Source: Patescibacteria group bacterium (GTDB lineage Bacteria > Patescibacteriota > Minisyncoccia > Phycocordibacterales > UBA1550). Taken from it: a DNA stretch of 61,785 bases. The translations under genes were made by a program, and so were the position numbers. The notes below the pieces were generated by a model. The model was given only the letters and a program-made list of their open reading frames with translations. It had not been told where the DNA came from and did not search any database. Shown here one piece after another: positions 4,628-43,331 of this stretch. Location: the NCBI GenBank assembly GCA_038061275.1, contig JBBTZQ010000018.1, forward strand, positions 1-61,785, read 5' to 3'. Position 1 is the first letter of the stretch. Each line of letters opens with the position of its first letter.

Positions 4628-4640
4628 TATAGAAACTTCA

Positions 4641-5090: not shown

Positions 5091-5110
5091 TGTGTGATTT
5101 AATGCATCAA

Positions 5111-5139
5111 AAGGGCTGTCTCACGACAGCCCTTTTTTA
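5111..5139 (+). terminator. rho-independent terminator
   Basis: aagggctgtc tcac gacagccctt followed by a T-run. Confidence 0.8.
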
Positions 5140-5179
5140 TATTTGTGTTTTGGCGGTTACTGTGGTATAATAAAAAAGT

Positions 5180-5989: not shown

Positions 5990-6018
5990 TTTTAGGCCCA
6001 TATGTTAGACTAAGTCTG

Positions 6019-6981: not shown

Positions 6982-7036
6982 GATTTTTCATCGTATGGGT
7001 TTTGGTGGCGAAGGAACACAAAGACATGTATAATAG

Positions 7037-8080
7037 ATGTATCTTATGGGCAACACGAAACTACAAGTATATTTTATAGTTACCGTTCTTTTGGTCATCT
7101 CGGTCCTCACGTTTTTTATTTTTGAGCCTTTTCTCTCGGCTCTTGTACTTGCGATTGTGTGCGTGGTTGTGTTTAAACCTATTCACAAGAGGATCCTCGC
7201 TAATTTTGAAGAGTGGCCAGGACTTGCTGCGTTAGCAACGATTTCCGTCATCCTTGTCTTTGTGGTAACGCCTCTTTCGTTATTAGGCTCGCAGATTTTT
7301 CAGGAGGCGGGTCAAATATATTCATATTTGACCCACGAGGAAGGGAAAAGTGCTCTCACAAATGTGCTCAATATGGCATTGAGAGATATTGAAACGTACG
7401 TTCCTGTTGCTCAAGGATTTTCAGTGAACGTGGATCAATATATCAAACAGGGGCTTGAGTGGTTTCTTGGGAATCTCGGAGTTGTCTTCTCGAACCTTGC
7501 GAAAATTTTGTTAAGTTTGTTTGTATTTATTATTGCATTGTATTACTTGCTCAAGGACGGATACAAAATAAGAAAATTTATTGTTGCGCTTAGTCCATTG
7601 TCTGACGGTGATGACGAGGTGATTTTGAAAAAATTAGAAACTTCGGTTAATTCTATTGTGCGCGGTAGTCTCCTCATTGGATTTATTCAAGGAATTCTCA
7701 CGATGATCGGGTTTACGATTTTCGGTGTTCCCAACCCAATTCTTTGGGGAAGTATCGCAATGATAGCGTCACTTGTCCCGGGAATAGGGACTACGCTTGT
7801 CCTTGCTCCCGCTGTTTTGTTCCTCTTCTTGACTGGAGAGACGATATCGGGTTTTGGACTTCTTGCTTGGGGAATAGGTGCGGTAGGACTTGTTGATAAT
7901 CTTCTCGGACCAAAGCTTATTGGAAAGGGGATGCAACTTCATCCGCTCTTAGTACTCCTCGCGGTCCTTGGTGGACTAGCCTTCTTTGGGCCTATCGGAA
8001 TATTCTTGGGGCCACTTACGCTGAGCCTCCTCATTTCTATCTTAGAACTTCACTTTTCATTATCAAAACAAAAAAACTAG
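7037..8080 (+). CDS. AI-2E family transporter (PerM/UPF0118)
   Basis: 347-aa polytopic membrane protein. ..VNSIVRGSLLIGFIQGILTMIGFTIFGVPNPILWG.. is characteristic of AI-2E/PerM permeases. Confidence 0.8.
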   Translation: MYLMGNTKLQVYFIVTVLLVISVLTFFIFEPFLSALVLAIVCVVVFKPIHKRILANFEEWPGLAALATISVILVFVVTPLSLLGSQIFQEAGQIYSYLTHEEGKSALTNVLNMALRDIETYVPVAQGFSVNVDQYIKQGLEWFLGNLGVVFSNLAKILLSLFVFIIALYYLLKDGYKIRKFIVALSPLSDGDDEVILKKLETSVNSIVRGSLLIGFIQGILTMIGFTIFGVPNPILWGSIAMIASLVPGIGTTLVLAPAVLFLFLTGETISGFGLLAWGIGAVGLVDNLLGPKLIGKGMQLHPLLVLLAVLGGLAFFGPIGIFLGPLTLSLLISILELHFSLSKQKN

Positions 8081-8149
8081 GCTCATAAATTTTTGCGTAA
8101 AAGTTTATATGTTGTTGTCGTTTTTCTTATCTTTTGCTATCATATCCGC

Positions 8150-8374
8150 ATGATAAAAGATTTTTTATTGAAGCAAATGCTTAAGCGACAGCTCAAAGGT
8201 CTTCCTGAAGCTGAGATTGACCGTATTGTAGAACTCGTGGGCAAAAACCCAGAAGTCTTCAAAAAGATAGGCGATGAAATCAAAGCAAAGGTAAAGAGTG
8301 GACGTTCTCAGACTGCAGCAACTATGGAAGTTATGAGAGCACATCAGTCTGAGCTACAGAAAATTTTGAAATAG
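8150..8374 (+). CDS. hypothetical small protein
   Basis: ORF track starts at 8093. The first ATG (8150, MIKDFLLKQ..) is the more likely start. Charged helical sequence with no recognisable motif. Confidence 0.4.
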   Translation: MIKDFLLKQMLKRQLKGLPEAEIDRIVELVGKNPEVFKKIGDEIKAKVKSGRSQTAATMEVMRAHQSELQKILK

Positions 8375-8544
8375 GCGACTCATAACAAAAACCTTTTTGA
8401 GGAAGTTTTTTGTTTTTAAAATTTTAGCATCGCATTCTCCTGCAAAAGTATAGAAACGGAATATTATTTTTTCACAGCGTATACTCGTAATTATTGATCC
8501 AATAACCGTTAAAAGACTCTGGTATCGCGACAGACTTATTACTT

Positions 8545-8596
8545 AAGAAAAATAAAAACAAAAAACCCACCGAAGCAGGTTTCCTGTCGGTGGGTT
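8545..8596 (-). terminator. rho-independent terminator of the 8626..9141 gene
   Basis: aacccaccga...tcggtgggtt stem with inner cagg/cctg pairs. On the minus strand it is followed by ttttgtttttattttt. Confidence 0.8.
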
Positions 8597-8625
8597 GCGT
8601 TTAGTGATGTTCAAGTCTTGTGATT

Positions 8626-9141
8626 TCAATAATAGTTTGTAGTTTCCCATCCAAACCATTCTGGCGGATCAAAAGATTGCGCACCTACAAAGGAATCAAA
8701 CTTCGCTGTTATCAGCAGATACCCAGCTCCTATCTCGCCGATAAGAGTATTTATTTCTATTACGGCGCCACATAAACAAAGATTTGCGTAGCGGTTTATC
8801 GAATAATACCCAGAATCGCTCCATAAGTCATCAAATTGCTCTTCAGTAATATTGACCTCGTATCTGTATCGGGAGATACCTTGGCCGTTTTTTCTTGTCA
8901 AAAAATATGTATGAGTTTCCCCAGAACATTCCTTCCGAATATACATCTCGTAATCGGCATCCAAATGTTGCAATAGCACAGAGCAGGATTTAAGTTCTGC
9001 AAGGTCAAGGGAAATCCCTCCTTCTTCGCGAGGCAAGTCTTCCAATTTAAGTATGAACGACCGTGTGTGCTCAAGAACAGGGGAGGCTTGGTTTAGTGCA
9101 CTAGCAGGGGAGGCTTTGGTCAAAGCAGAACTCTTGGTCAT
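8626..9141 (-). CDS. hypothetical protein, possibly CYTH-like fold with degenerate catalytic motif
   Basis: C-terminal ..GAVIEINTLIGEIGAGYLLITAKFDSFVGAQSFDPPEWFGWETTNYY resembles the CYTH tail (..D.F.G.L.GL.LAEVEF....F..P.W.G.EVT.D..Y). The N-terminal ExExK is not conserved. Recognition from memory only. Confidence 0.35.
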   Translation of the reverse strand: MTKSSALTKASPASALNQASPVLEHTRSFILKLEDLPREEGGISLDLAELKSCSVLLQHLDADYEMYIRKECSGETHTYFLTRKNGQGISRYRYEVNITEEQFDDLWSDSGYYSINRYANLCLCGAVIEINTLIGEIGAGYLLITAKFDSFVGAQSFDPPEWFGWETTNYY

Positions 9142-9298
9142 GGTTTGCTCCTAGGTTGGCCTAATAAAGAATCTGTGCTCATTATACATACAAAAGCTTT
9201 TTTAGCTATTGATATGACTTAAGATATCTTTTAACCTTTACACCCAAAGCGGTGTCTGTTAGGATGCGACAGTAGGGAAAAATCTAATTTAAACTTTT

Positions 9299-10396
9299 AT
9301 GGCATTAGCAATCGGTATCGTGGGACTTCCAAACGTTGGCAAATCGACGCTTTTCAATGCGCTTACTAAAAAAAGCGTTCCTGCGGAAAACTATCCATTC
9401 TGCACAATCGACCCATCAGTCGGCGTTGTTGCTGTCCCAGACGAGCGCTTGGAGCTCCTTGCGAAATTTTCAAATACAAAAAAAATAGTTCCTGCCGCTG
9501 TGGAGTTCGTTGACATTGCGGGACTCGTCAAAGGCGCGTCCGAGGGTGAAGGTCTCGGTAACCAATTCCTCGCGCATATTCGTGAGACCGATGCCATCGC
9601 GCAGGTCGTGCGAATCTTTGAAGATGACAATGTGATTCATGTGAGCGGAAAGATTGATCCTGTGTCTGACATTGAGACTATCAACCTTGAACTCATACTT
9701 GCTGACATGCAGACGGTGGGTAAGCGACTCGGCAATATCGAAAAAGACGTGAAGCGAGGTGCGAAAGAAGCGATACAAGAAAAAGAAATACTTACGCGCG
9801 TGAAAGAAGCGCTAGAATCTGAAAAGCTCGCGCGCGAAGTGAAACTGAACGAGGAAGAGCTCGCTATCCTCCGCACAATGCACCTCCTCACGATGAAGCC
9901 TATTTTGTTCGTACTTAATAAAAAGGCGGGCGGAAAAAATCTAGACGAAACTAAAGACGAACGATATGAAAAACTTTTGGAATATATTAAGAAGCTTAAT
10001 TCACACTGTGTGATTGTCGACGCTGGCGTTGAGCACGATTTGTCGTCGCTTGAGGGTGAGGAGAAAGAACTTTTTCGAGAAGAACTTGGTGTAAAGGACG
10101 ATGGTATAAACAACCTCATCAAAAAAAGCTACGAGATGCTCGGACTTGAAACATATCTCACGACTGGAGAAGTAGAAACGCGCGCATGGACAATCAAAAA
10201 GGGAAGTACCGCTCCTGTCGCTGGCATGGCAATCCATACCGATTTCAAAGATAAGTTTATTCGTGCAGAAGTCATCTTCTGGAAAGACCTTTTAGATGCT
10301 GGTTCATTTGCAAACGCTCGCGAGAAGGGGCTTATGCGTGTGGAGGGGAAGGAGTATATCGTCAAAGACGGGGATGTGATGGAATTTAGGGTATAA
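9299..10396 (+). CDS. ychF: ribosome-binding ATPase YchF (Obg-like GTPase family)
   Basis: [24 protein letters not shown]-loop, ..YPFCTIDP.., C-terminal TGS-like ..[16 protein letters not shown]. Confidence 0.95.
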
Positions 10397-24075: not shown

Positions 24076-25278
24076 ATGGTATTTTCTTTTCTTTTCAGCG
24101 AGAAACAAGACGACACACTCGCACTCCTCATTGATATAGGTTCGGCAAGCGTGGGAACTGCAATTGTTTCTCTTGAGGGAAAAAAATCAATCCTTAAAAC
24201 AAACAAAGTACCTCATGTTTTTGCAACAAACAGAGAGACGATACCGTTTCAAGAAACACTGTCATCAGCACCATTCCTTTCTGCGATGAATCATGCGCTT
24301 GAGCGTTCACTCAAGAATATTCAAAAGAAAACGAGGAGTCGTAGACCCCCCGCTCATATTTATTGCACGCTTTCATCACCATGGTTTATTTCTAAAACAC
24401 GGCATATTCAAATTTCGCGAGAGACTTCCTTTAAGGTTGATGAAAAAATACTCAATGATTTTCTTGATGAGGATATAGAAAATCTAAAGAAAGAACTTAA
24501 CGGCACGCTCACAGTAAAAGACATCGCTGTTATTGAAAAAAAAATCATTCAAATGAAGCTGAACGGGTACGAGATTAAAAATCCCTTAGGGAAAACTACT
24601 CCTCAAATAGAAATAATCTCAAACGTAAGTCTTTCTTCAGACAGGACTATTGAAAGCATTGAGCGCGCGATTGGGCATTTTTTCCATACCAAATCAATGC
24701 ATTTTTGTTCGTTCCCTCTTGCTGCATACAGTACGGTGAGAGATATATTCCCTGAAAAGAAAAATTTTTTGTTTATAGATATCACGGGAGAAGCAACTGA
24801 CATATCGCTCATCTCTAATGATCTTTTGATTGGCACCACTTCATTTGCGCAAGGGAAAAATTTCTTTATTCGTGCGATTTCCTCTGAGTTCAAAACACCA
24901 CACGAGGAAGCAGCTACTCTTTTTGGAATGTTTCTCAGTAATGCTTTGGATGCGAAGACTGAAGAGGCGGTTGCAACCGTAGTTAATAAAGGTCATACTG
25001 AATGGAGTACTCAGCTCGAAAAGTCGCTGATTACGCTAGCGAAAGAAACTCAAATCCCGAACGCGGTATATTTTACTTGTGATTCTGATGTGGCAACTCT
25101 TTTTTTGGGACTTATTGATAATTTAAAATCTGAATCTTTGGCAAACAATAATTTTGAAGCCAAATATATCGATCATTTTGCCGTAGCATCGTCTGTTACC
25201 TTTAACCCAAGTGTTGTCCGCGATCCATTTCTGGTGATAGAGGCACTGTTTGCATTTAAGCTTAACCAACAAAAATAA
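24076..25278 (+). CDS. hypothetical protein, actin-like ATPase (ASKHA; FtsA/PilM-like) fold suspected
   Basis: ..LALLIDIGSASVGTAIV.. (phosphate-1-like) and ..FLFIDITGEATDISLI.. (phosphate-2-like) spaced as in FtsA/PilM. Confidence 0.4.
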   Translation: MVFSFLFSEKQDDTLALLIDIGSASVGTAIVSLEGKKSILKTNKVPHVFATNRETIPFQETLSSAPFLSAMNHALERSLKNIQKKTRSRRPPAHIYCTLSSPWFISKTRHIQISRETSFKVDEKILNDFLDEDIENLKKELNGTLTVKDIAVIEKKIIQMKLNGYEIKNPLGKTTPQIEIISNVSLSSDRTIESIERAIGHFFHTKSMHFCSFPLAAYSTVRDIFPEKKNFLFIDITGEATDISLISNDLLIGTTSFAQGKNFFIRAISSEFKTPHEEAATLFGMFLSNALDAKTEEAVATVVNKGHTEWSTQLEKSLITLAKETQIPNAVYFTCDSDVATLFLGLIDNLKSESLANNNFEAKYIDHFAVASSVTFNPSVVRDPFLVIEALFAFKLNQQK

Positions 25279-25279
25279 T

Positions 25280-26617
25280 ATGGATGGAATAAAAAGAAAA
25301 TTAAATCAGGATTTACCTACGCCGAAGTCTGAGATTGCACGGAGACCTTCGTATGCGCCCGAGCTTCGTCCAGACCTTTTGCCAAGCGACACAAGTGAAC
25401 GTATTTCGAAAAATCCTTTTTTTGAAAAGAGCGATCATGTGAATGAAACTTTTCGTGTTAAGCCTGAAAGAAACAATCCTCTATTATTGTGGGGATTAGC
25501 TGTTATTTCTTTAGTCGTTCTTGGGTTGATACTTGTTACGAGTTATTTTTCATCCGCCACCATTGAAATTGTTCCCGTGACTCAAAAGATAGAGATTGAC
25601 CAAGAATTTACTGCGGTCAAAGATCCAGAAGAAAACCAACTCGCGTTCTATTCTATGGTCTTAAATGAGGAAAAAGCAAAGGAAATACCGGCAACTATAG
25701 AAAAAAAGATTCAAGAGAAAGCTTCTGGAAGAGTGATTATTTTTAATACTTACAGTAAGGATCCTCAACGGCTCATAAAAAATACACGTCTTGAGGCAAC
25801 AGGAGGGAAGATATTCAGAATCAATGATTCCGTAGTTGTTCCCGGCACAAAAATGGTAAATGGAAAAATGGAACCTGGGCAAATAGAAGCTGTTGCATAT
25901 GCGGACGCTGCAGGCAAGGAATACAATTTGGGGGTTGTTGACTTCACGATTCCAGGATTTAAGGGCGACCCTCGCTACACTAAATTTTTTGCTCGTTCTG
26001 TAGAATCGAGCCCTCTCTCGGGCGGTTTTTCTGGGAGCGTAAAGGTACCTTCAGACGAAGATATTTCTAAAGCTCAACAAGAACTAAAAGAAGATCTAAA
26101 AAAATCCTCTATAGAAAAAGCACAGGCTAAAATTCCTGAAGGAGTAACATTTTTCCCAGGAAGTGTTGTGCTTAAATATGAAGAAGTTCCACAGGACCCT
26201 TCTCAAGAAGAACGCAAGAATGTAATAGTGAAATCAACTCTTTTAGTATTCTTTTTTGACACCGCTTCATTGACCAATAAAATGGCTAAAGAAGTTCTTA
26301 AGGAGGATAAGAATGCTGCGCAAACAATTTCCAATATGTCCTCGCTCGTTTTCTCGTTTGTTGACCCCGTGGACAATATCATTTTAAGCGATCTTTCAGC
26401 AATTAAGTTTAGAATTGCAGGGAATATAGTTTTTGTCGGTGATATCAATAAAGAAAAGCTCGTTAAAGACCTCGCAGGGAAGAACAATAATGAATTCTCA
26501 AGCGTAATAGAACAACAGGCAAACATAAGAAAAGCGAATGGTGAAATATTCCCCATGTGGAATTCTTCGTTTCCAAAGGATCCTGCTGACATATCGGTAA
26601 AAATAATAAACGAGTAA
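25280..26617 (+). CDS. hypothetical bitopic membrane protein (disordered N-terminus, 1 TM, large extracytoplasmic domain)
   Basis: ATG at 25280 lies 1 nt after the previous stop. TM LLLWGLAVISLVVLGLILV. No recognisable catalytic motif. Confidence 0.45.
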   Translation: MDGIKRKLNQDLPTPKSEIARRPSYAPELRPDLLPSDTSERISKNPFFEKSDHVNETFRVKPERNNPLLLWGLAVISLVVLGLILVTSYFSSATIEIVPVTQKIEIDQEFTAVKDPEENQLAFYSMVLNEEKAKEIPATIEKKIQEKASGRVIIFNTYSKDPQRLIKNTRLEATGGKIFRINDSVVVPGTKMVNGKMEPGQIEAVAYADAAGKEYNLGVVDFTIPGFKGDPRYTKFFARSVESSPLSGGFSGSVKVPSDEDISKAQQELKEDLKKSSIEKAQAKIPEGVTFFPGSVVLKYEEVPQDPSQEERKNVIVKSTLLVFFFDTASLTNKMAKEVLKEDKNAAQTISNMSSLVFSFVDPVDNIILSDLSAIKFRIAGNIVFVGDINKEKLVKDLAGKNNNEFSSVIEQQANIRKANGEIFPMWNSSFPKDPADISVKIINE

Positions 26618-33662: not shown

Positions 33663-34748
33663 ATGAGTCCCAAAGATTATTACAAAATTCTCGGTGTGGA
33701 AAAGAACGCCTCTCAAGATGAGATCAAAAAGGCGTTTCGTAAACTTGCACACCAGCATCATCCTGATAAAGGAGGCGATGAGAAAAAATTCAAGGAGGCG
33801 AGTGAGGCGTATCAAACTCTCTCCGATGAAAAAAAGAGAGCCGAGTATGATACACACGGATCCACAGGGGGAAATCGTGGATTCGGCGGTGGTGGAGGGC
33901 AGACCCAGGGAGGAGGTTTTGACTTCTCAGGGTTCGGTGGAGGGCAGGGTTTTGAAGGCGTCGACTTAAATGATATCTTTGGAGATTTTTTCGGTGGTCG
34001 CGGAGCACAAACATCTTCGCGGTCTCGCCGTGGCAGTGATGTTTCAGTGGATATCAAACTTACATTTTCTGAAGCTGTATTTGGCGTTGAGCGAAAGATC
34101 CGCATTGCCAAAACTTCGAAATGCGAAACGTGCGAAGGCTCTGGCGCAAAACCAAAAACTAAACTCATCATTTGTACTATTTGTAACGGAGTTGGTCGCA
34201 TTAGCGAGAACCGACAATCTGTCTTTGGCACATTTTCACACATGCGCGACTGTCCACATTGTGGTGGGTATGGAAAAATCCCAGAAGAGAAATGCACTAC
34301 CTGTAAAGGAGCGGGTGTAATGCGTCGCGAGGAGGAGATCAGTATTAAAATTCCTGCGGGGATTGAACACGGAGAAATGGTTCGCTTAATGGGGGCTGGA
34401 GAAGCTGTACAACATGGAACCACAGGAGACCTCTATGTGCGCGTTTCAGTAGCGCCACACCCCGTGTTCAAGCGCGATCATGAGAACCTTGTGATGAACC
34501 TCAGAGTCAAACTCACGGATGCTATTTTAGGAGCAGAGTATCCACTCGAGACTCTTGATGGACAGATCAAACTCTCTATCCCCAAAGGAATATCTTCTGG
34601 AGAAGTATTACGGGTAAAAGGGAAAGGTGTTCCTGTTGATAAAAAACATCGCGGGGACCTGTTTATTAAAGTTGAGGTAAAAAACCCAGCAAAACTCTCT
34701 CGCAAAGCTGAAAAACTCATCGAAGAACTCCGTGTGGAGGGGATATAA
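33663..34748 (+). CDS. dnaJ: molecular chaperone DnaJ
   Basis: J domain with HPD (..[11 protein letters not shown]..), G/F-rich linker, four CxxCxG zinc-finger repeats. Confidence 0.95.
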
Positions 34749-34760
34749 AACTACTAATAT

Positions 34761-34789
34761 TTGCAAATTTATTAAAATCAAGGTATAGT
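34761..34789 (+). promoter_or_regulatory. sigma70-type promoter (TTGCAA-N17-TATAGT) driving a small transcript
   Basis: Read directly, 13 nt after the dnaJ stop. Followed by GAGGAGG and two mini-ORFs. Confidence 0.5.
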
Positions 34790-34805
34790 TTTCGAGGAGG
34801 TATTA

Positions 34806-34835
34806 ATGGTTCAAGTATCGAGATTTTCTCGGTGA
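34806..34835 (+). other. 9-codon mini-ORF (MVQVSRFSR) with near-perfect SD
   Basis: GAGGAGG at 34794-34800, 5-nt spacer, ATG at 34806, TGA at 34833-34835. Could be a leader/regulatory uORF or chance. Confidence 0.25.
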
Positions 34836-34868
34836 CATTAACGCCATTCCATGAAAAAGAGGTGTGAA

Positions 34869-34958
34869 ATGAACATTATATCGTATGCTGGTCCTGGCGA
34901 AGGCACTTGCCCAGATTGTCCAGGTGACCCAGGTGATGCGCCCTGTGACGGTGGTTAA
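34869..34958 (+). CDS. 29-aa Cys/Pro/Gly/Asp-rich mini-protein MNIISYAGPGEGTCPDCPGDPGDAPCDGG (candidate precursor peptide)
   Basis: ATG at 34869 preceded by AGAGGT (5-nt spacer). An in-frame ATG at 34851 would add MKKRCE. The coding stretch is visibly more GC-rich than its flanks. A hairpin follows. Not in the ORF track (<60 aa). Confidence 0.3.
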   Translation: MNIISYAGPGEGTCPDCPGDPGDAPCDGG

Positions 34959-34972
34959 CTTTTCCACTAGTA

Positions 34973-35006
34973 AATATCCCCCGTTTTTTAATAGGCGGGG
35001 GATATT
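34973..35006 (+). terminator. 11-bp stem hairpin after the mini-ORF (possible terminator/attenuator)
   Basis: aatatcccccg (12-nt T-rich loop) cgggggatatt. No clean 3' T-tract, so function is uncertain. Confidence 0.45.
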
Positions 35007-35030
35007 CTATGTTAATATATGTAATATTGT

Positions 35031-37058
35031 ATGAATTTCCCAAAAACTCAAAAAGAGAATATTGAAGAAAAAATTTTTGACACAGTTATTAATGACCCCT
35101 ATCGATGGCTTGAGAATGGAGAAAGCAGAGAGACAAAAGAATGGGTTGATGCGCAAAATGCTTATATTGATCTGAATCTTCGGAATGAAACTTTTGAGAT
35201 GTTTTCTCGAGAGCTTACTCAAGATTTTAAAATTACTAATTTTTCGAACCCCATCCCTTGCAGAGGAAAATATTTCTTTTCTGAGAGACAGCCTGATGAA
35301 GACCAGTTTGTGGTTTATGTAAAAGAAGGAATTCACGGGACTCCTATCAAGCTCGTTGATCCTAACGGAATGAATTCAAGTAATACGGTCGCTATTGATT
35401 TTTGGTCAATATCAAGAACAGGGAAGTATTTGGTGTACGGCCTTTCGCATGGCGGTGATGAAATGCCGACCATGTACATTAAAGACATTGGTGCTGATAG
35501 TGCCCCCGAGCAAATTCCGCGCTGTAAAAATGCTCAGGCGAGATGGCTCCCTGATGATTCCGGCTTTTATTATAAAAGAAATCCTCAAGAAGGCGCTGTT
35601 CCTAGAAATGAAGAGCACCTACACTCGAAAGTCTATTTTCACCAAATAGGTCAAAATCCAGAAAACGACGAACTTATCTTTGGGGAGGGTCGTCCCAAAG
35701 ATGATATGCTTACATTGGCTATTTCGTTAGATGGAAGATATTTAGCTGTTGAGGCATCTAGAAATTGGACTGAAAATGAAATATATATTTATGATAGGGA
35801 GAACAAACAGACAACACCTTTAATAATTAATATCCCCGCACTTTCTTCGATTTTCTTTTTAGAAGACAAGGCGATACTCTATACAAATTACGAGGCAAAT
35901 AATTATCGAACTCTCTCTATGTCACTTAATTCTCTCTTTGTTCCCATTGAGCAATGGCAAGAATTAATTCCTGAAAGAGAGGTCCTTCTGCGATCAATTG
36001 TCCCAACTAGAGACAAGATTCTTGCTGATTATTTAGTGAACGCTTGCTCTAAAGCAGTAATCTTTGACCAACAAGGAAAAGAACAAGAAGAAATACCTCT
36101 TCCACCATACTCCAATCTCACTGGCATTTCTGCTCGTCGCGAAGAACATGAATTTTTTTATGGAGTAGAATCCTTCACATTTCCTAAGGTGACTTATCGA
36201 TATATCCCTGATGAACGTACGTTTGCTGAATATAGAAGAACACAAAGCTCGATAGATTCTGATGAATATATCGTCAAGCAGGAATGGTATTCGTCTAAAG
36301 ACGGCACTAAAATACCCCTATTTATTTTTCATAGGAAGGATTTAAAAACCAGCGGATTCCACCCAACTATTCTTTATGGATATGGTGGGTTTGGTCATTC
36401 ACTGACACCTTTGTTCAATAGAAATTTTATACCTTGGATTAAGCGAAACGGCATTTTTGCAGTTGCAAACATACGAGGAGGTGCAGAGTTTGGTGAAGAG
36501 TGGCATAAGCAAGGAATAAAAGAGAACAAGCAAAATAGCTTTGATGATTTTATTGCCGCTGCTGAGTACTTAATAAAGGAAGGATACACTGACCGTAGCC
36601 ACCTAGGTATTTTAGGAGGAAGTAACGGAGGTCTTTTGGTAAGCGCCGTAGAGACTCAAAGACCAGAACTCTTTAAGGCGGTATGTTCAAGGGTTCCACT
36701 TGCTGATATGGTGCGATTCCCGCTTTTTGGCATGGCTTCTCGCTGGGTTCATGAATACGGGGATCCAAATAACAAAGAGGATTTGCTCAGAATATTGAAA
36801 TGGAGTCCTTACCATACTACAAAGGAAGGAATAGAATATCCTGCCACCTTTTTTACAACTGCAGACAAGGACTCGCGAGTCAATCCTCTCCACGCTCGAA
36901 AAATGGCAGCCATGCTTCAATCAATCAATAAAAAAAACAGTATTTTTATTTTTACTGAAATGGAGGCTGGGCACGGTCCTGGCAAACCGATAACAAAAAC
37001 CGTAGAAAGCTGGGCGCTGATACTTACCTTCTTTGCAAAAGAGCTTGGTTTAGGTTAA
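35031..37058 (+). CDS. prolyl oligopeptidase (peptidase S9A family)
   Basis: N-terminus ..DPYRWLE.. and beta-propeller. The catalytic domain has ..GILGGSNGGLLV.. (GxSxGG nucleophile elbow) and ..DKDSRVNPLHARK.. and ..EAGHG.. Confidence 0.9.
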   Translation: MNFPKTQKENIEEKIFDTVINDPYRWLENGESRETKEWVDAQNAYIDLNLRNETFEMFSRELTQDFKITNFSNPIPCRGKYFFSERQPDEDQFVVYVKEGIHGTPIKLVDPNGMNSSNTVAIDFWSISRTGKYLVYGLSHGGDEMPTMYIKDIGADSAPEQIPRCKNAQARWLPDDSGFYYKRNPQEGAVPRNEEHLHSKVYFHQIGQNPENDELIFGEGRPKDDMLTLAISLDGRYLAVEASRNWTENEIYIYDRENKQTTPLIINIPALSSIFFLEDKAILYTNYEANNYRTLSMSLNSLFVPIEQWQELIPEREVLLRSIVPTRDKILADYLVNACSKAVIFDQQGKEQEEIPLPPYSNLTGISARREEHEFFYGVESFTFPKVTYRYIPDERTFAEYRRTQSSIDSDEYIVKQEWYSSKDGTKIPLFIFHRKDLKTSGFHPTILYGYGGFGHSLTPLFNRNFIPWIKRNGIFAVANIRGGAEFGEEWHKQGIKENKQNSFDDFIAAAEYLIKEGYTDRSHLGILGGSNGGLLVSAVETQRPELFKAVCSRVPLADMVRFPLFGMASRWVHEYGDPNNKEDLLRILKWSPYHTTKEGIEYPATFFTTADKDSRVNPLHARKMAAMLQSINKKNSIFIFTEMEAGHGPGKPITKTVESWALILTFFAKELGLG

Positions 37059-37120
37059 GAACAGGCGGTACTATTCGTATATAATCGTAAACAGATATGT
37101 TATAATGGTTATGATTTATT

Positions 37121-38224
37121 ATGAGGATTAGAACACCAAAAATTTATAAGGACAAAGAAGAACTTCCAGAGGGTACAGAGGTTGTTGATATTGTAGACTC
37201 TGCTCTCAAAGAACTTTTTATTGTCGAGAATCCACATTTTAAAAATAGTCCGGATAATCTTGGTGAGCAAATTAAAAATTTTTCATCAGAATATGAAAAG
37301 GACATAATCTGGGCGTATCTTCCATGGAAAAATATTGCTATTAGAATGCCGAGTGAAGCCGTTTATTATAAACTTCGTACAGCAAGAAACAGAAATATTA
37401 TAAGAGAAGAAGAACAAGAAAAATATAGAAACTGCCACGCAGGAATAGTCGGGCTGTCGGTCGGATCGTCAATATTAGCGTCGCTTGTAATGACTGGTGG
37501 TCCTAAAAAAATAAAGATTGCTGATTTTGATGTACTGGAGACAACAAACCTCAATCGTTTGAGAGGAAAAATTTTTGATATTGGGAAAGTTAAAACAGAT
37601 ATTGCAGCAAAAGAAACATGGGAGCTCGACCCTTTTGCAGATCTTGAGTTATGGCACGAAGGTGTTACGAAAGATACGATTGAGAATTTTATTTTGTCGC
37701 CGAAGCTTGATATTTTTATCGACGAGATGGATAGCATTCATATTAAGATTCTTTCCCGCATCATATGTAAAGAAAATAGAATACCTGTTTTAATGGCGAC
37801 AGACAATGGTGATAGTATAATTCTTGATGTAGAAAGATTTGATCTTGAGCCGGAGCGTCCTATTTTTCACGGTTTGCTCAACGACGATGACCAAAAAAAC
37901 CTTGAAGACCTCACGTTTAAAGATTGGCTCAAGCTCGCGACAAAAATTGTTGACGCTGAATACTTAACGCCACGAATGCAGGAATCTCTCTTGGATATAG
38001 GACTTAAAAAAATTCCCTCGGTTCCTCAGCTCGGCACTACTGCAGCTATCGCTGGTGCGGCGGTTGCTTATGCAGTTCGACAAATTTCCAACGGAGTTGC
38101 GCTCCCTTCTGGTAGATACACATTAGGACTGGAGTCAACTATATCTACAAATTATAATGAGGAAGAGCAGGTAGTTGAGCGCAAAAAAAGAACCGAGGAA
38201 TTTAAGAGCAAATTCATGAAATGA
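37121..38224 (+). CDS. ThiF/E1-like adenylyltransferase-fold protein (Rv1355c N-terminal-domain-like)
   Basis: ..WAYLPWKNIAIRMP...RTARNRNIIREEEQEK...GIVGLSVGSSILASLVMTGG..IKIADFDVLETTNLNR.. Rossmann-like E1 core with the GLSVG variant I associate with Rv1355c/MoeY-type proteins (from memory). Confidence 0.65.
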   Translation: MRIRTPKIYKDKEELPEGTEVVDIVDSALKELFIVENPHFKNSPDNLGEQIKNFSSEYEKDIIWAYLPWKNIAIRMPSEAVYYKLRTARNRNIIREEEQEKYRNCHAGIVGLSVGSSILASLVMTGGPKKIKIADFDVLETTNLNRLRGKIFDIGKVKTDIAAKETWELDPFADLELWHEGVTKDTIENFILSPKLDIFIDEMDSIHIKILSRIICKENRIPVLMATDNGDSIILDVERFDLEPERPIFHGLLNDDDQKNLEDLTFKDWLKLATKIVDAEYLTPRMQESLLDIGLKKIPSVPQLGTTAAIAGAAVAYAVRQISNGVALPSGRYTLGLESTISTNYNEEEQVVERKKRTEEFKSKFMK

Positions 38225-39648
38225 AAAAAATACAAGGAATTGAAGTAGCTATCAACACACTTAAATGGGCTGCCAAAACAGTACCTGCCTATAGAGAATT
38301 TCTGAAAAAAAATAATTTTCAGATTAAAAATATAAAGACAGTCGATGATTTTTCCGCTGTCCCTTTGATGGATAAAGATAATTATATTAAAGCATACCCT
38401 TATTTAGACCTTTTTCCGCTTGGTAAAGTACCTTCAGTTATATCATCAAGCTCGGGTTCGTCAGGAACTCCATTTTATTGGCCGCGCGGACGAGAACAAG
38501 AAATCGCGGGAGGGAATTTGCACGAACCAATCTTTAGAGATATTTTTAAGATAGGAAAGAAGAGAACTCTTGTCGTTAATTGTTTTTCAGCAGGAACATG
38601 GATTGCAGGAGCATTTACTACAGAATCATGTAGGCATTTGGCTGAAACAAAAGGATATAATATTTCCGTAATTCCACCAGGAATTGAAAAAGAAGATATT
38701 TTATCAATTTTGAAGAGACTTGCGCCCTTGTTTGATGTTGTTGTTATTGCAGGATACCCTCCATTTTTGATGGACGTGGTTACTGAAGCTTCATCACGAG
38801 ATATACCTCTAAAAAATATGAACATTAAGTTTATATTTGCAGGAGAAAATTTTTCTGAGAAATGGCGACAAGTAATATGCGACATTGCATTTATTGAGGA
38901 TATTGAGCACTCTGTGGCGAGTGTTTATGGTACAGCGGACGCTGCAATGTTGGGACACGAGACACCTCTTTCAATTTTTATTCGTCAAAAAGCAAATAAA
39001 AATAAAGCGTTCTTTAAAGAATTTTTTGGAGATCTGACATTTTTGCCAACACTTGTACAATATCAACCTGACCATATTTATTTTGAAAATATTAATAATG
39101 AAATTGTATTCACTGTTAAAGGAGGAATTCCACTTGTGCGCTACAATATTCGAGACCGAGGAAGAATTTTTTCTCATACTGAGATACGAGCGATACTGAA
39201 AAAATACAAGTACGATAAAGAGATAGCGCATGAATTAAAAAAATGGGAAATGCCATTTGTGAGCCTTCACGGAAGAAATGATGTTTCCGTGACATTTTAT
39301 GCCTTAAACATGTTTCCTGAAAATTTCAAATACGGACTTGAGGACACTCGTATTTCGGAATATGTAACAGGGAAATTCGTAGTTTCTTCTAAAACTACAA
39401 GTGACCAAAAAACACAAGAACTTCATTTGTCTATAGAGCTTTCTCCGAACATTCATAAAAAAACGATCCCCATTGCCGTAATAGAAAAGATTATCGTAGA
39501 GAGGTTGCGTAACTCAAATACTGAGTATCGTAAACTTCATGATACTTTGGGAAAAAAAGCTATTCCTAAAATAAAACTCTTGCCATATTCAGACCCAGTG
39601 TTTATTCTGAAGAAGATAAAACATTCTTGGATAAAAAAGGAAATATAA
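38221..39648 (+). CDS. PaaK-like / coenzyme F390 synthetase-like adenylate-forming enzyme (ANL superfamily)
   Basis: ATGA overlap with the upstream gene. ..SSSGSSGTPFYWPR.. phosphate-binding loop and ..YGTADAA.. motif in PaaK-like order. 475 aa. Confidence 0.65.
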   Translation: MKKIQGIEVAINTLKWAAKTVPAYREFLKKNNFQIKNIKTVDDFSAVPLMDKDNYIKAYPYLDLFPLGKVPSVISSSSGSSGTPFYWPRGREQEIAGGNLHEPIFRDIFKIGKKRTLVVNCFSAGTWIAGAFTTESCRHLAETKGYNISVIPPGIEKEDILSILKRLAPLFDVVVIAGYPPFLMDVVTEASSRDIPLKNMNIKFIFAGENFSEKWRQVICDIAFIEDIEHSVASVYGTADAAMLGHETPLSIFIRQKANKNKAFFKEFFGDLTFLPTLVQYQPDHIYFENINNEIVFTVKGGIPLVRYNIRDRGRIFSHTEIRAILKKYKYDKEIAHELKKWEMPFVSLHGRNDVSVTFYALNMFPENFKYGLEDTRISEYVTGKFVVSSKTTSDQKTQELHLSIELSPNIHKKTIPIAVIEKIIVERLRNSNTEYRKLHDTLGKKAIPKIKLLPYSDPVFILKKIKHSWIKKEI

Positions 39649-39649
39649 T

Positions 39650-40711
39650 ATGAAAGAAACGATAAAAAAAATACTTGAATACGCAGTGTATGCTCCGTCT
39701 GGAGACAATTCTCAGCCATGGCGTTTTGTCGTTAAGGGAAATAAGATATTTCAGTATAATCTTCCGTTTGAAGATAATATTTATTTGAATTATCAACAGA
39801 GTGGATCATACGTCTCTCACGGTGCGGTAATAGAAAATATATTTATCGCAAGTTCTCATTTTGGTTATGCTACTAATGTAGAATTGTTTCCTGAAAACAG
39901 TGAACAGGATTTAGTAGCTATTCTGGATCTACAAGAAGCGAATATATCTATTGATCCAGAATTTGAATGTATAAAGAGTAGGTGTGTAAACCGCAGGCCG
40001 TATGATTCACGCGAGATTGGAAAGGAGTTACTTGAGAGTATTAAAGCATCTATTAAAAAAGAGTTCGATTTTCAAGGACTATCATTCATCACAGACCGAG
40101 GATCTATTAAGGAAGTTGGGGTCGCTGCAACAGTCATGGAGCGTATTGCTCTTCGGAATCCTGTTATTCATAAATTGTTTTTTTCTGGAATTATTTGGAC
40201 TGATAAAGAACACAGACAAAAGAAAAAAGGACTCTATATAAAAACACTCGAATTGCCACTACCGGTTCAGTACCTCTTTAGACTTTTTAAGCATTGGCCA
40301 GTCATGTCGTTTTTGGGACGCATTGGGTTCCCCGAAAAAGCAGCGAACGGAAATGCGGAAATCAATGCTAAGAGTGCCGCATTTGGGATAATTACGACCA
40401 AACAATCATCCCCGAAGGATTTTATTCTTGCTGGAAGGGTGATGCAGAGAATTTGGTTAAAGACCACAAGCTTAGGTTTGTCTTTGCAGCCAGTGACCGG
40501 ACTTCTTTTTTTAGCACACAGAGTGAAAGATAATCAGACTGAAGGATTATCTCTAATTCAAACAGAAATGATCAAAGATGGAATTTCAGTAATAGAAAAG
40601 AAATTTAGTTTGAAAGACGAAATTCCAATAATGATGTTTCGGATTGGGTATGCTAAAAAACCTACAGCTAACTCATTCCGGATGGAACCCAAAGTGATTT
40701 TTAAAGAGTAG
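39650..40711 (+). CDS. nitroreductase-superfamily FMN oxidoreductase (Acg / Rv1355c C-terminal-domain-like, double-length)
   Basis: Starts 1 nt after the upstream stop. ..ILEYAVYAPSGDNSQPWRFVV.. signature. The length of about 350 aa is typical of Acg-type tandem nitroreductase folds. Confidence 0.65.
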   Translation: MKETIKKILEYAVYAPSGDNSQPWRFVVKGNKIFQYNLPFEDNIYLNYQQSGSYVSHGAVIENIFIASSHFGYATNVELFPENSEQDLVAILDLQEANISIDPEFECIKSRCVNRRPYDSREIGKELLESIKASIKKEFDFQGLSFITDRGSIKEVGVAATVMERIALRNPVIHKLFFSGIIWTDKEHRQKKKGLYIKTLELPLPVQYLFRLFKHWPVMSFLGRIGFPEKAANGNAEINAKSAAFGIITTKQSSPKDFILAGRVMQRIWLKTTSLGLSLQPVTGLLFLAHRVKDNQTEGLSLIQTEMIKDGISVIEKKFSLKDEIPIMMFRIGYAKKPTANSFRMEPKVIFKE

Positions 40712-40724
40712 ATTTTCTAATAAT

Positions 40725-42302
40725 ATGGATATTTTTTTAAATTTAGACTTGCTTGTTTTAGGAATCGTAATTGCTGGGATTGCGGTCATTGGGGCTGCTG
40801 TGTTTCTCACAAATTATCAAAACAAAACATACAGATATTTCTTCTACTTTTTATTAATTACAATAGTCTGGAGTTTGTTGAGCTATCAGAGCTACTTGTC
40901 CGGAGCAACTTTAGGCAACCTAAGGGCTGTAATCTTCGTCGCGGTTTGGCACTCATTTTTGTTTTTCCAATTTTGTTTCGTATTCCCGAAAGAGTCAATC
41001 GCCCTTCCTTTCTGGTATAAGTATATGTTGATACCGTATATTATTGGTGTTTCAGTATTAACACTTACACCTGCGGTTTTTTTAAAAATAACAGAGTATG
41101 CGTCAGACGGAACAGTGCTCGTTGTAGAAAATGGAGGAGGAATCGCAATTTTCGGCATCACAGTCTTTTTGCTTATTCTTGGCGGAATATTTATCTTAGT
41201 CAAGAAATACATTCAAGAAGTACCAGAAGAAAGGAAGCAATTAAGATTTATTTTGATTGGCGTTGTAATAACATTTACTCTTTTAGTCACCTTTAGTTTT
41301 GTATTACCAGCTATCTTTCAAGATGCTAGATTCTTCAAGCACGGGGTTTTGGCGTTGATTCCATTTATTGCTCTAACGTTCTATGCGATTTATAAACATA
41401 AACTTTTTAATATAAAAGTTGTATCAACTGCTTTCCTGGTATTTCTAGTTACTGTTTTTAGTATTTCTAATATTCTTTTTTCTGAAACACCTATTAGTGT
41501 GACAGTAAATACCACAGCATTTTTGATAATTCTGATTGGAAGTATTCATCTTATTAGTGATATGTTAAAACTTGAGAGGGCAAATGAAGAAAAAGCGGAA
41601 TTTATATCTTTTGCCTCCCACGAACTTCGTACTCCACTTACTGTGATCAAAGGTTACTCGTCAATGATGCTTGATGGAGATTTTGGAGAATTAAATCAAA
41701 ATTCACGTGATGCTTTGCAAAAAATACTCGTGAAGTCAAATGAAGCAGTAAGCTTAATTGGTCAATATTTGAACAAATCAAAAATGGAGCTTGGTCAGCT
41801 GCGTTACAATTTAAGTACGTTTGACATGGGGAATCTGGTTCGCTTGGCTGGGAGTGAATTTGGACATAACGCTGATCAAAAGGGTATTACGATTAATTAT
41901 ACAAATGATAATAAAGAATCCTACGCGGTAAATGCAGATGAGGGCAAAATAAAAGAAGTCGTGGCTAATTTGATAGACAACGCTGTAAAGTACACCCCCA
42001 AAGGCTCTGTGGATATTTACCTTTCTCGCACTAACGACAAGATTTTATTGAAAATATCAGATACTGGAGTCGGTATTTCGTCAGAAAGCTATCCTCTTTT
42101 ATTTAAAAAATTCGGACGCTTAAAGGGAACCGAAAAAGCAGGTATTTTGGGAACCGGGCTTGGTCTGTATTTGGCTCATACTTTTATTACCGCTCACAAG
42201 GGACGTATTTGGGCGGAGTCAAAAGGTGATGGGGAGGGTTCGACATTTTTTATCGAGCTTGATGCTTTCAAAAATACATCCATTGCTCCGGAAATGTCAT
42301 AA
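40725..42302 (+). CDS. sensor histidine kinase with N-terminal 7TM-type sensor region
   Basis: About 7 TM helices, then HisKA (..FISFASHELRTPLTVIKGY..) and HATPase_c (..LIDNAVKYTP.., ..DTGVGI.., ..GTGLGLYL..). No response regulator adjacent. Confidence 0.85.
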   Translation: MDIFLNLDLLVLGIVIAGIAVIGAAVFLTNYQNKTYRYFFYFLLITIVWSLLSYQSYLSGATLGNLRAVIFVAVWHSFLFFQFCFVFPKESIALPFWYKYMLIPYIIGVSVLTLTPAVFLKITEYASDGTVLVVENGGGIAIFGITVFLLILGGIFILVKKYIQEVPEERKQLRFILIGVVITFTLLVTFSFVLPAIFQDARFFKHGVLALIPFIALTFYAIYKHKLFNIKVVSTAFLVFLVTVFSISNILFSETPISVTVNTTAFLIILIGSIHLISDMLKLERANEEKAEFISFASHELRTPLTVIKGYSSMMLDGDFGELNQNSRDALQKILVKSNEAVSLIGQYLNKSKMELGQLRYNLSTFDMGNLVRLAGSEFGHNADQKGITINYTNDNKESYAVNADEGKIKEVVANLIDNAVKYTPKGSVDIYLSRTNDKILLKISDTGVGISSESYPLLFKKFGRLKGTEKAGILGTGLGLYLAHTFITAHKGRIWAESKGDGEGSTFFIELDAFKNTSIAPEMS

Positions 42303-42356: not shown

Positions 42357-43331
42357 ATGAAAAAAACCCTGCTTTCAGGCATAAAACCAACGGGAACGAT
42401 ACACTTGGGCAACTATTTTGGCGCGATGCGACAGTTTGTGGATTTTCAGAATACTCATAATTCGTTCGTCTTTATTGCCAACTACCATGCACTCACGAGC
42501 GTATCAGACGGGGAGCTCCTGCGTAAGCTTTCCATTGATATTGCAATGGACTATCTCGCTATTGGGCTTGATCCGAAAAAAGTGACTATGTTCCTTCAGT
42601 CCGATGTTCCTGAAGTGACCGAGCTCGCGTGGATATTTAATACGCTGACGACGGTACCGTATCTCATGCGCGCGCACGCGTTCAAGGATTCCGAAGCAAA
42701 AAATAGTGAGGTGAACGTTGGACTCTTTGATTACCCGATACTCATGGCTGCGGACATATTGATGTATGGTGCAGATATAGTGCCTGTTGGTCTCGACCAA
42801 AAACAGCATGTGGAGATAACGCGCGATACAGCGCAAAAATTCAATCGTATTTTTGGTGAGACTTTCAAAGTGCCAGAGCCCCTTATTCTTGAAAATGTAC
42901 AAACAGTGATGGGAACTGATGGTAGAAAGATGAGTAAAAGTTATGGGAATATTATCGGACTCTTTGCGAGCGACGAGGAGATACAAAAAGCAGTCATGAG
43001 CATACCGACAGATTCTAAAGGCATTGATGAACCGAAAGATCCTGCACAATGTAAAGTTTTTGCATTTCACAAACTTCTTGCTCACGATGAACTCGACCAG
43101 GTGAGAAAACGCTACGTCGAAGGAGGGATAGGGTACAAAGAATCAAAGGACATTTTAGTAGAAAAAATGAAAGCCTTTATCAAACCGCTTCGCGAGCGAA
43201 GAGAGGAGATTGCGAAAAATCCTGATGCGATAATTAAAATGCTAAGCGATGGGGGAGCGGAAGCACGCACTCGTGCACAGGCGATGATGAAGATTGTGCG
43301 AGAAAAAACAGGACTATCGCTCACGAACTAG
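42357..43331 (+). CDS. trpS: tryptophan--tRNA ligase
   Basis: ..SGIKPTGTIHLGNYFG.. (HIGH-like), ..KMSKSYGN.. (KMSKS). 324 aa. Confidence 0.95.
   Translation: MKKTLLSGIKPTGTIHLGNYFGAMRQFVDFQNTHNSFVFIANYHALTSVSDGELLRKLSIDIAMDYLAIGLDPKKVTMFLQSDVPEVTELAWIFNTLTTVPYLMRAHAFKDSEAKNSEVNVGLFDYPILMAADILMYGADIVPVGLDQKQHVEITRDTAQKFNRIFGETFKVPEPLILENVQTVMGTDGRKMSKSYGNIIGLFASDEEIQKAVMSIPTDSKGIDEPKDPAQCKVFAFHKLLAHDELDQVRKRYVEGGIGYKESKDILVEKMKAFIKPLRERREEIAKNPDAIIKMLSDGGAEARTRAQAMMKIVREKTGLSLTN

Follow-up and report, generated by a model that had tools for sequence, protein, structure and literature searches.

Two conserved, uncharacterised gene units between dnaJ and trpS of a Patescibacteria contig: a peptide gene with a prolyl oligopeptidase, and a four-gene cassette likened to oxazolone synthetases

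The block of genes between dnaJ and trpS on a 61,785-nt contig of a Patescibacteria group bacterium (JBBTZQ010000018.1; the whole contig is called the window, and all coordinates are window positions) is composed of two real, conserved and uncharacterised units. It is probably best explained as two separable entities: unit A (34761-37058), a 29-aa peptide gene and an S9A prolyl oligopeptidase (POP), and unit B (37121-42302), a cassette of four genes encoding a ThiF-like adenylating cyclase, a PaaK-like adenylating enzyme, a nitroreductase-fold flavin oxidase and a seven-transmembrane (7TM) sensor histidine kinase. The peptide would be a substrate of the POP, most likely a precursor resembling those of peptides that are made by ribosomes and modified after translation (RiPPs), and the cassette would make an amino-acid-derived small molecule of the N-acyl-dehydroamino-acid or oxazolone type. 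An earlier note, made from the DNA letters alone, had read the block as one RiPP-like locus; this interpretation is partly supported.

Synteny and layout of the two units

Relatives were sampled with two proteins. With the PaaK-like protein as anchor, 80 genome loci and several contigs were fetched (its homologues number more than 1,400, and wherever a source is named for the best 120 it is nearly always a member of the Patescibacteria); a query with the POP gave 80 loci. These fetched relative loci are designated by L-numbers. In the closest relative, L001, five proteins are 90-93% identical to those of the window, and a 104-bp spacer separates dnaJ from the ThiF-like gene, neither the peptide open reading frame (mini-ORF) nor the POP being present. 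The triad of ThiF-like, PaaK-like and oxidase genes does not adjoin the POP homologue in 79 of the 80 POP-query loci, the exception being L033, where an unrelated POP (31% identical) lies beside the cassette on the opposite strand. Besides L033, no other full cassette has an adjacent POP, except that of L167, in which a POP immediately precedes the ThiF-like gene, just as in the window, and the peptide is absent. The peptide and POP are found without the cassette in L086, L169 and L173. The peptide/POP pair moves independently of the downstream enzymes. A screen of 26 cassette loci for a conserved small ORF in or beside the cassette yielded none, the sole clusters being antisense artefacts of conserved genes.

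The single five-gene peptide-maturation system that had been proposed is therefore not borne out, L001 having neither peptide nor POP and 79 of the 80 POP loci having no adjoining triad. Of the gene neighbourhood that the proposal anticipated, the co-occurrence of the ThiF-like, PaaK-like and nitroreductase genes holds, and includes the kinase, but the peptide and the POP are not part of the set. Nor is the block a dedicated and unusual accessory island, as the four-gene cassette is widespread in Patescibacteria, often at the same position.

The features of the block and its two flanking genes are as follows:

33663-34748, + strand: dnaJ, upstream flank
34761-34789, + strand: promoter-like site of the mini-ORF transcript, TTGCAA-17-TATAGT (9/12 positions match)
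34819-34831, + strand: small hairpin in the 5' untranslated region (UTR), CGAGA-UUU-UCUCG (same element in L086 and L173)
34869-34958, + strand: mini-ORF of 29 aa, MNIISYAGPGEGTCPDCPGDPGDAPCDGG (Shine-Dalgarno sequence (SD) AGAGGTG; ATG at 34869, stop at 34956-34958)
34974-35005, + strand: terminator-like hairpin 3' of the peptide gene (-22.2 kcal/mol, z = -4.7)
35031-37058, + strand: S9A prolyl oligopeptidase (Peptidase_S9_N 1e-68, Peptidase_S9 6e-52)
37121-38224, + strand: ThiF-like adenylating cyclase (PF00899 3e-21; NF005901 1.8e-88)
38221-39648, + strand: PaaK-like ANL adenylating enzyme, 475 aa (fold search; weak TIGR02155 match)
39650-40711, + strand: nitroreductase-fold flavin oxidase, Acg-like double domain (NF011424 7.9e-61, NF005901 2e-49)
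40725-42302, + strand: 7TM sensor histidine kinase, 525 aa (HisKA_7TM, HisKA, HATPase_c)
42357-43331, + strand: trpS, downstream flank

The genes lie at the coordinates, in the order and on the one strand given in the earlier note, and Pfam and NCBIfam searches agree with its gene classes. The tight coupling that it described for the triad is likewise real: the start of the PaaK-like gene overlaps the ThiF-like stop by 4 nt, the oxidase gene begins 1 nt past the PaaK-like stop, and the three genes co-occur in 22 loci. The GC content of the POP gene and the four cassette genes (0.35-0.40) is lower than that of the flanking housekeeping genes (0.44-0.47). Nearly all large ORFs of the window lie on the + strand, and the block is a caution that same-strand neighbours in a compact genome need not share one pathway.

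The four-gene cassette

The genes of the ThiF-like enzyme, the PaaK-like enzyme, the oxidase and the 7TM kinase are found together in 22 fetched Patescibacteria loci, and further cases end at contig ends. Four gene orders are represented, namely ThiF-PaaK-oxidase-kinase, oxidase-ThiF-PaaK-kinase, PaaK-ThiF-oxidase-kinase and oxidase-PaaK-ThiF-kinase, the kinase being last in all 22 loci. Because this co-occurrence survives the shuffling of gene order, the ThiF-like, PaaK-like and nitroreductase genes are considered to form, with the kinase, a conserved and functionally linked set. In L039 the cassette is enclosed by dnaK-dnaJ and trpS-aspS; in L047 it lies directly downstream of dnaK-dnaJ, and in L065 about 4.4 kb downstream, with the kinase absent; it is followed by trpS in L010, L006 and L017 and by aspS in L002, L013, L033 and L048. 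Since the dnaK-dnaJ and trpS/aspS flanks recur in distant lineages (e.g. L039, L047, L010), the cassette is an old feature, inherited vertically, rather than an island of a single strain.

Both the ThiF-like protein and the oxidase are assigned to the oxazolone-synthetase family. The ThiF-like protein matches the 'Rv1355c family' model NF005901 at 1.8e-88 over model positions 36-351 of 722 (next family 7e-18), and the oxidase matches the same model at 2e-49 over positions 375-713, as well as NF011424 at 7.9e-61 (326-671 of 679) and the Acg family at 1.4e-38. The two proteins thus tile the Rv1355c model end to end and are therefore the split halves of a known fusion. Rv1355c is TrzS, a fusion of ThiF cyclase and flavin oxidase that makes N-acyl tryptazolones (PMC12856293); the split pair TyzB/TyzC (PMC10404671) and OxzB (bioRxiv 10.1101/2020.06.11.147165) carry out the same chemistry on N-acyl Tyr or Phe, and related clusters make dehydro-N-acyl tyrosines (PMC12479983). 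None of the triad genes is an ordinary thiamine, molybdopterin or sulfur-carrier gene. Among solved structures, AclA (9egb) is closest in sequence to the ThiF-like protein, followed by TcdA, another enzyme that forms an oxazolone ring; the predicted model of the ThiF-like protein (predicted local distance difference test, pLDDT, 91.6) matches the folds of AclA, ThiF and MoeB. In an alignment of 32 Patescibacteria homologues, residues R89, N90, G111, G115, D135, D137, N143, N145, R146 and K158 are invariant, E202 and D204 are conserved at 90% or more, and no Cys is conserved at the 90% level. The nearest solved structure of the oxidase is MsAcg (2ymv), and the APS..N.QPW flavin motif is conserved.

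The comparison with azole-forming McbBCD/SagBCD systems that had been drawn for these two enzymes fails. Unlike these thiazole/oxazole-modified microcin systems, the block has no YcaO partner, as the earlier note had stated (Pfam and NCBIfam over the block), and its E1-like protein retains all its adenylation residues and a complete ATP-binding/adenylation site.

The PaaK-like protein has no Pfam match and reaches 1e-8 with TIGR02155 (33.8 bits against an equivalog cut-off of 646.3 bits). Its AlphaFold model (pLDDT 84) matches PaaK1 (2y27, E 8e-23) and also the AMP-ligases NatL2, AjiA1 and ClxA, and it carries the invariant loop SSGSSGxPxxW. AMP-ligases of the NatL2, AjiA1 and ClxA type couple adenylates without coenzyme A (CoA). 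The likeness to the PaaK-family AMP-ligases (PaaK1/2, and NatL2, AjiA1 and ClxA of benzoxazole pathways) concerns the predicted fold (Foldseek E 8e-23 to 1e-15) and the SSGxxGxP loop; in contrast to them, the window protein is only 14-18% identical in sequence and has no paa catabolic genes around it, its neighbours being the ThiF-like, oxidase and kinase genes. An assignment as PaaK equivalog was rejected, the protein falling below the TIGR02155 cut-off outside any paa operon context and sharing the fold alone. The clade to which it belongs is a large uncharacterised enzyme family. Outside Patescibacteria, members 37-40% identical over their full length are present in Nocardia, Lentzea, Nonomuraea, Sorangium, many cyanobacteria, Chloroflexia and Methylococcaceae (L025-L085, e.g. 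L029, L053, L057), and about 20 loci, the majority from cyanobacteria, have a Ser/Thr protein kinase gene ~2 kb upstream, usually in the opposite orientation.

As judged from its genes, the cassette may be likened to an oxazolone synthetase system from which a defining component, the N-acyltransferase, is missing and to which a kinase has been added. Like OxzAB (Pseudoalteromonas rubra), TyzACB and TrzAS (Mycobacterium tuberculosis), it comprises a ThiF-like ATP-dependent cyclase and an Acg-like flavin oxidase, which in those systems are adjacent (TyzB/TyzC) or fused; unlike them, it has a PaaK-family enzyme as constant third gene in place of the N-acyltransferase, a dedicated 7TM kinase, deaminating enzymes in some variants and a Patescibacteria host. 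Some variants share a methyltransferase with the NasY/ThiF/nitroreductase clusters of stieleriacines. The arrangement also resembles autoinducer synthase/sensor-kinase operons (agrBDCA, comCDE), in which biosynthetic genes and a downstream polytopic membrane kinase form one operon; it differs from them in showing no sequence relationship and in the lack of a response regulator beside the kinase in the window, so that the comparison bears on a signalling role purely by inference. In the fetched loci, the sensor region of the kinase (residues 1-270) matches only cassette kinases (E 1e-9 to 1e-158), and other kinases are matched to the catalytic half only. In L002, L016, L023, L027 and other loci, response regulators are encoded close to the kinase. 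The variants of L015, L016, L018, L050, L058 and L064 have a kinase of about 725-780 aa, versus 525 aa in the window, an excess of roughly 230 residues. No clear same-strand oxidase was detected in L015, L016 and L050, L015 having a marginal opposite-strand match.

Several cassettes carry additional genes placed among the core genes. These include an aromatic ammonia-lyase of the 4-methylideneimidazole-5-one type inside the cassette in L167, L017, L013 and L020 (PF00221 up to 1e-165; ASG motif), a Glu/Leu/Phe/Val-type (ELFV) amino-acid dehydrogenase inside the cassette in L010, L012, L046 and L022, a class I/II aminotransferase in L047 and L065, and methyltransferase-like genes in L009, L011 and L058. 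The lyase, dehydrogenase and aminotransferase convert an amino acid to a carboxylic acid, and are therefore a plausible source of substrate for the PaaK-like enzyme. In the lyase-bearing L167, the PaaK-like protein is only 47% identical to that of the window, versus 76% for the ThiF-like protein, which fits a changed acid substrate. The variants and the lack of a conserved peptide point to an amino-acid-derived small molecule, possibly a signal sensed by the kinase.

Substrates, product and sensing role are inferred here from the family assignments and the gene linkage described above, and a route of four steps would be consistent with both. The PaaK-family enzyme would adenylate a carboxylic acid, either taken up or, in the variants, derived from an amino acid via the lyase, dehydrogenase or aminotransferase, and would join it to an amino acid, thereby replacing the acyl-CoA-dependent N-acyltransferase of OxzAB, TyzACB and TrzAS. 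The ThiF-like enzyme would adenylate the carboxylate of the amino acid and close the oxazolone ring, the flavin oxidase would desaturate the C-alpha/C-beta bond, and the co-inherited 7TM kinase would sense the product or a precursor.

A number of observations weigh against this reading and against the separation of the two units. Neither the window block nor the gaps of the examined cassette loci yielded an N-acyl amino acid synthase (OxzA, TyzA, TrzA, NasY), and the PaaK-like enzyme could be a plain CoA ligase, with acyl transfer taking place elsewhere or not at all, amide formation being presumed in the route above. The equivalent in the oxidase of the catalytic Arg540 of TrzS could not be mapped. 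Searches of the whole window for a receiver domain (response regulator) with phmmer and a receiver hidden Markov model were negative. In the non-Patescibacteria lineages surveyed (Nocardia, Lentzea, Sorangium, cyanobacteria, Chloroflexia and Methylococcaceae), members of the PaaK-like clade stand alone; what surrounds them varies from lineage to lineage (protein kinase, nitronate monooxygenase, PPK2, symporter and others) and offers no clue to function, the survey of these neighbours relying on naive ORF calling, which is unreliable in high-GC genomes. Finally, the window and L167 both have a POP in the same place beside the cassette, an unrelated POP adjoins it in L033, and an M19 dipeptidase does so in L002; peptidases (POP, M19) adjoin the cassette more often than a simple chance estimate predicts, and a loose supply role, for example in providing amino acids, is possible.

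Three other explanations have been considered for these genes. A sensing and catabolic or salvage unit, in which the kinase would detect an aromatic or amino-acid-derived acid from the host or the environment, the PaaK-like enzyme would activate it to a CoA thioester or an adenylate and the other enzymes would convert it so that it is assimilated or detoxified, with no signalling product, would agree with the classically catabolic PaaK family, with ammonia-lyase, dehydrogenase and aminotransferase partners that are also typical of amino-acid breakdown, with the presence of the kinase in the same operon and with the peptidases that sometimes adjoin it. It is nevertheless quite unlikely, as the pair of ThiF-like cyclase and Acg-like oxidase is biosynthetic in every characterised case and no downstream catabolic genes are present in the cassette. 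The ThiF-like protein could also act as an E1 on the C-terminus of a protein or peptide (that of the kinase or of a small protein encoded elsewhere), and the adduct would be decorated by the PaaK-like enzyme and the oxidase; the E1/ThiF-like fold, the lower-ranking structural matches to MccB and PaaA and an N-terminal helix/beta-hairpin domain of ~85 residues, which could bind a peptide, agree with this. However, a ubiquitin-like, ThiS-like or MoaD-like protein is absent from the cassette, Cys conservation nowhere reaches the 90% level, the N-terminal domain is common to the Rv1355c family, to which TrzS, an enzyme with small-molecule substrates, belongs, and PADLOC detected generic E1 similarity only, which makes such an activity very unlikely. 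Least probable of all, and hardly credible, is the pathway assumed in the earlier note, in which all five genes serve one RiPP, the triad modifying the 29-aa peptide and the POP removing its leader or cyclising it. The genes are indeed adjacent and on the same strand in the window, in L167, too, a POP immediately precedes the ThiF-like gene, the peptide gene is genuine and conserved, and E1-like enzymes and nitroreductase-fold dehydrogenases are known in RiPP pathways (PMC12596934, PMC12250964). Against it stand the cassette of L001 with neither peptide nor POP, the POP of L167 without peptide, the other full cassettes with neither (bar the unrelated POP of L033), the peptide and POP elsewhere without the triad, the lack of a conserved small ORF in or beside the cassette, the membership of the ThiF-like protein and the oxidase in a small-molecule oxazolone-synthetase family, and the amino-acid-deaminating enzymes inserted in variant cassettes.

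Oxazolone biosynthesis was found only in 2020-2025, and its discoverers suspect signalling, the compounds resembling signalling molecules and being labile in water according to the authors (PMC12856293; bioRxiv 10.1101/2020.06.11.147165). The invariable presence of the kinase in full cassettes is the first genomic hint of a signalling role of oxazolones. With a cyclase/oxidase pair kept at a conserved position in many reduced Patescibacteria genomes, an ATP-driven first enzyme and a kinase sensor domain found in cassettes only, the cassette offers a testable hypothesis on the role of oxazolones, which also bears on how uncultivated episymbionts sense their surroundings.

Three further observations concern single loci or the cassette as a whole. 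In L004:6506-9437 (complete Niyogibacteria genome CP066691.1), a lone PaaK-like gene lies 415 bp after hrcA-grpE-dnaK-dnaJ, with the ThiF-like, oxidase and kinase genes not nearby; this arrangement could be a reduced or dispersed form of the cassette. In L064:7185-9633, between dispersed ThiF-like and PaaK-like genes, are found a radical S-adenosylmethionine (radical-SAM)/SPASM gene (7474-8808), a methyltransferase-like ORF (8884-9633) and an upstream small ORF ending in GISGGSSQCC, which may be another, unrelated radical-SAM peptide cluster. A reading of the cassette as a defence system was rejected, PADLOC having returned generic E1 and HATPase similarity only.

The peptide gene and its prolyl oligopeptidase

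The existence of a 29-aa peptide gene rich in Cys, Pro, Gly and Asp, proposed in the earlier note, is confirmed by its conservation upstream of the POP and by the near-synonymous divergence of its core. Its start has been corrected to 34869, which is preceded by a proper SD and gives 29 aa; an alternative ATG at 34851 would give 35 aa. At least three other genomic contexts have a peptide with the core TCPDCPGDP..PCDG encoded immediately upstream of a POP homologue, namely MNAKPGVCFGGTCPDCPGDPGDPPCDGEVFLD in L086 (POP 75% identical to that of the window), MKMIAPCYADPNCPDCPGDPGDAPCGGE in L169 (62%) and MKKLFSCHGGTCPDCPGDPPCDGE in L173 (65%). Every copy has an SD and an ATG, and the adjacency of peptide and POP is kept in the four contexts, with peptides of 24-32 aa containing 3-6 Pro. 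Over the 17-codon core, 5 codons are identical, 11 differ synonymously and 1 non-synonymously between the window and L086; between L086 and L173, 10 of 10 codons differ, all synonymously. This mostly synonymous divergence implies selection on the peptide sequence, and the codon comparisons thus identify the mini-ORF as a real, translated and conserved gene under purifying selection.

Two further homologues of 29 aa, MNTALYAGPGEGTCPDCPGDPGDPPCDGG and MKMFLFAGPGEGYCPDCPGDPGDPPCDGG, were recovered by a scan of 1.84 billion representative proteins (E 1e-8 and 2e-7). None of nine peptide variants is present, by exact look-up, in a collection of 15 billion proteins, and the peptide gene is therefore usually not called. 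No NCBIfam or Pfam model matches the peptides, and tblastn and blastn searches of the mini-ORF and spacer against 85 PaaK-anchored loci returned low-complexity noise only. Other short peptides are encoded at the same place upstream of the POP in further loci: a divergent one, MKLTNLCSAGPGDDSPSYPDPHGPDGDGSQQE, in L168, an acidic, Pro-rich 30-mer in L171 and a Cys-rich 37-mer, MDTDEVFVLSEAAISSVQPQACSDCSCGDYGPCSQCW, in L087.

The catalytic residues of the POP are readable in the translation (the GGSNGG serine motif, Asp and His), and its homologues form more than 100 Patescibacteria clusters at 57-75% identity. The peptide and POP adjoin an ATP-binding cassette (ABC) exporter in L086, and an ABC exporter gene is located directly upstream in L086 and L168. 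A radical-SAM/SPASM gene lies within about 2.5 kb of the POP in L086 and L170. L087:4367-8040 resembles a compact RiPP cluster, with a radical-SAM/SPASM gene (4367-5791), the 37-aa peptide (5807-5920), in which a single Pro occupies the likely leader/core junction, and a POP 60% identical to that of the window (6001-8040). The best match of its radical-SAM/SPASM protein is the PapB ranthipeptide-maturase family (NF047865, 1e-46, below the 340-bit cut-off).

Since the related peptide of L087 is immediately preceded by a radical-SAM/SPASM maturase gene, a RiPP-like role of the peptide and POP is plausible. The peptide would most likely be a RiPP-like precursor processed by the POP and, in some relatives, would also be matured by a radical-SAM/SPASM enzyme, none being encoded in the window. 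An S9A prolyl oligopeptidase adjoining a short Pro-containing peptide is reminiscent of POP-processed RiPPs (FlaP, POPB, PCY1, OphP). The short Cys/Asp-rich precursor-like peptide followed by a hairpin, and the PapB-like gene in L087, recall radical-SAM RiPPs of the ranthipeptide/SCIFF type (PapB, freyrasin), from which the window differs by the absence of a radical-SAM gene and by a conserved C-terminal core instead of a conserved leader. The pair resembles both groups and, in the window, fits no family definition. Literature searches retrieved no description of this peptide and POP pairing, nor of the cassette combination in Patescibacteria.

What had been said of a RiPP-like peptide with its POP consequently stands as to the conserved linkage, to which the radical-SAM neighbour in L087 is added, and is weakened by several facts. 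No radical-SAM homologue was found across the window, in agreement with the absence of such a partner already noted there; the upstream peptide is missing at several close POP homologues (L166, L167, L170, L172), and also in L088; and the peptide is conserved in its C-terminal core with a variable N-terminus, the reverse of most RiPP precursors. The mini-ORF may alternatively encode a small metal-binding peptide, as the CPxCP..C motif suggests. The mini-ORF might also be a cis-acting leader (arrest or attenuation) peptide, whose translation would control, with the hairpin, read-through into the POP gene. A short Pro/Asp/Gly-rich ORF with a strong terminator-like hairpin 15 nt further on, just upstream of the POP, is a layout found in four loci, L168 and L171 have other short acidic, Pro-rich ORFs at the same place, and conservation at the amino-acid level is also possible for arrest peptides. 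This explanation is unlikely, however, since the Cys-containing core is kept residue by residue through saturated synonymous change, the equivalent peptide of L087 adjoins a radical-SAM maturase, and no alternative anti-terminator pairing was identified.

For unit A, the analysis recovers a conserved unannotated peptide gene and defines its directly testable pairing with a prolyl oligopeptidase. Taken together with the cassette, a joint reading can be put forward tentatively and is itself doubtful: the cassette would make a labile oxazolone-type signal from scavenged or amino-acid-derived acids, sensed by its dedicated 7TM kinase, and the CPDCPGDP peptide with its POP would represent a new RiPP-like family. 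If true, this would be the first defined chemical communication system, cell-to-cell or symbiont-to-host, of the ultra-small, host-dependent Patescibacteria, and the first physiological role assigned to bacterial oxazolones.

Regulatory elements and other features of the window

The promoter of the mini-ORF had been described as a consensus one. With 9/12 matches, the site alone is not above chance (26 such sites in 10 kb versus 26.8 expected), but it aligns with TTGCAA..TATTAT in L086 and TTGCGT..TACTGT in L173, at equal distance upstream of the peptide gene. The 5' UTR element, CGAG(A)-N3/4-(T)CTCG, is likewise at the same place in L086 and L173, and in the window it folds within a structure of -12 kcal/mol (z = -2.4). 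For the hairpin at 34974-35005, 0/200 shuffles fold as well, and L086, L169 and L173 have strong hairpins at the same post-peptide position, with different sequences. Rfam searches gave no match at gathering thresholds over the whole 61.8-kb window, and in the dnaJ-POP spacer the sole match was a chance-level small RNA (E 0.9).

Within the 5' UTR of the mini-ORF (window 34795-34836), a very strong SD, GAGGAGG, and an ATG at 34807 open a 9-codon ORF, MVQVSRFSR, which overlaps the conserved CGAGA..TCTCG hairpin. In L168:5760-5800 and L169:5735-5775, this hairpin is replaced by a shared palindrome, GGGAATGTTCCC. The two 5' UTR leader types, the palindrome and CGAGA..TCTCG, could be operator sites or RNA structures.

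Elsewhere in the window, two ORFs (24076-25278 and 25250-26617) have homologues (E 4e-38 and 8e-40) in the two genes upstream of the radical-SAM gene of L087, an indication that this locus is from a related organism. One ORF of this pair has a weak FtsA-like Pfam match.

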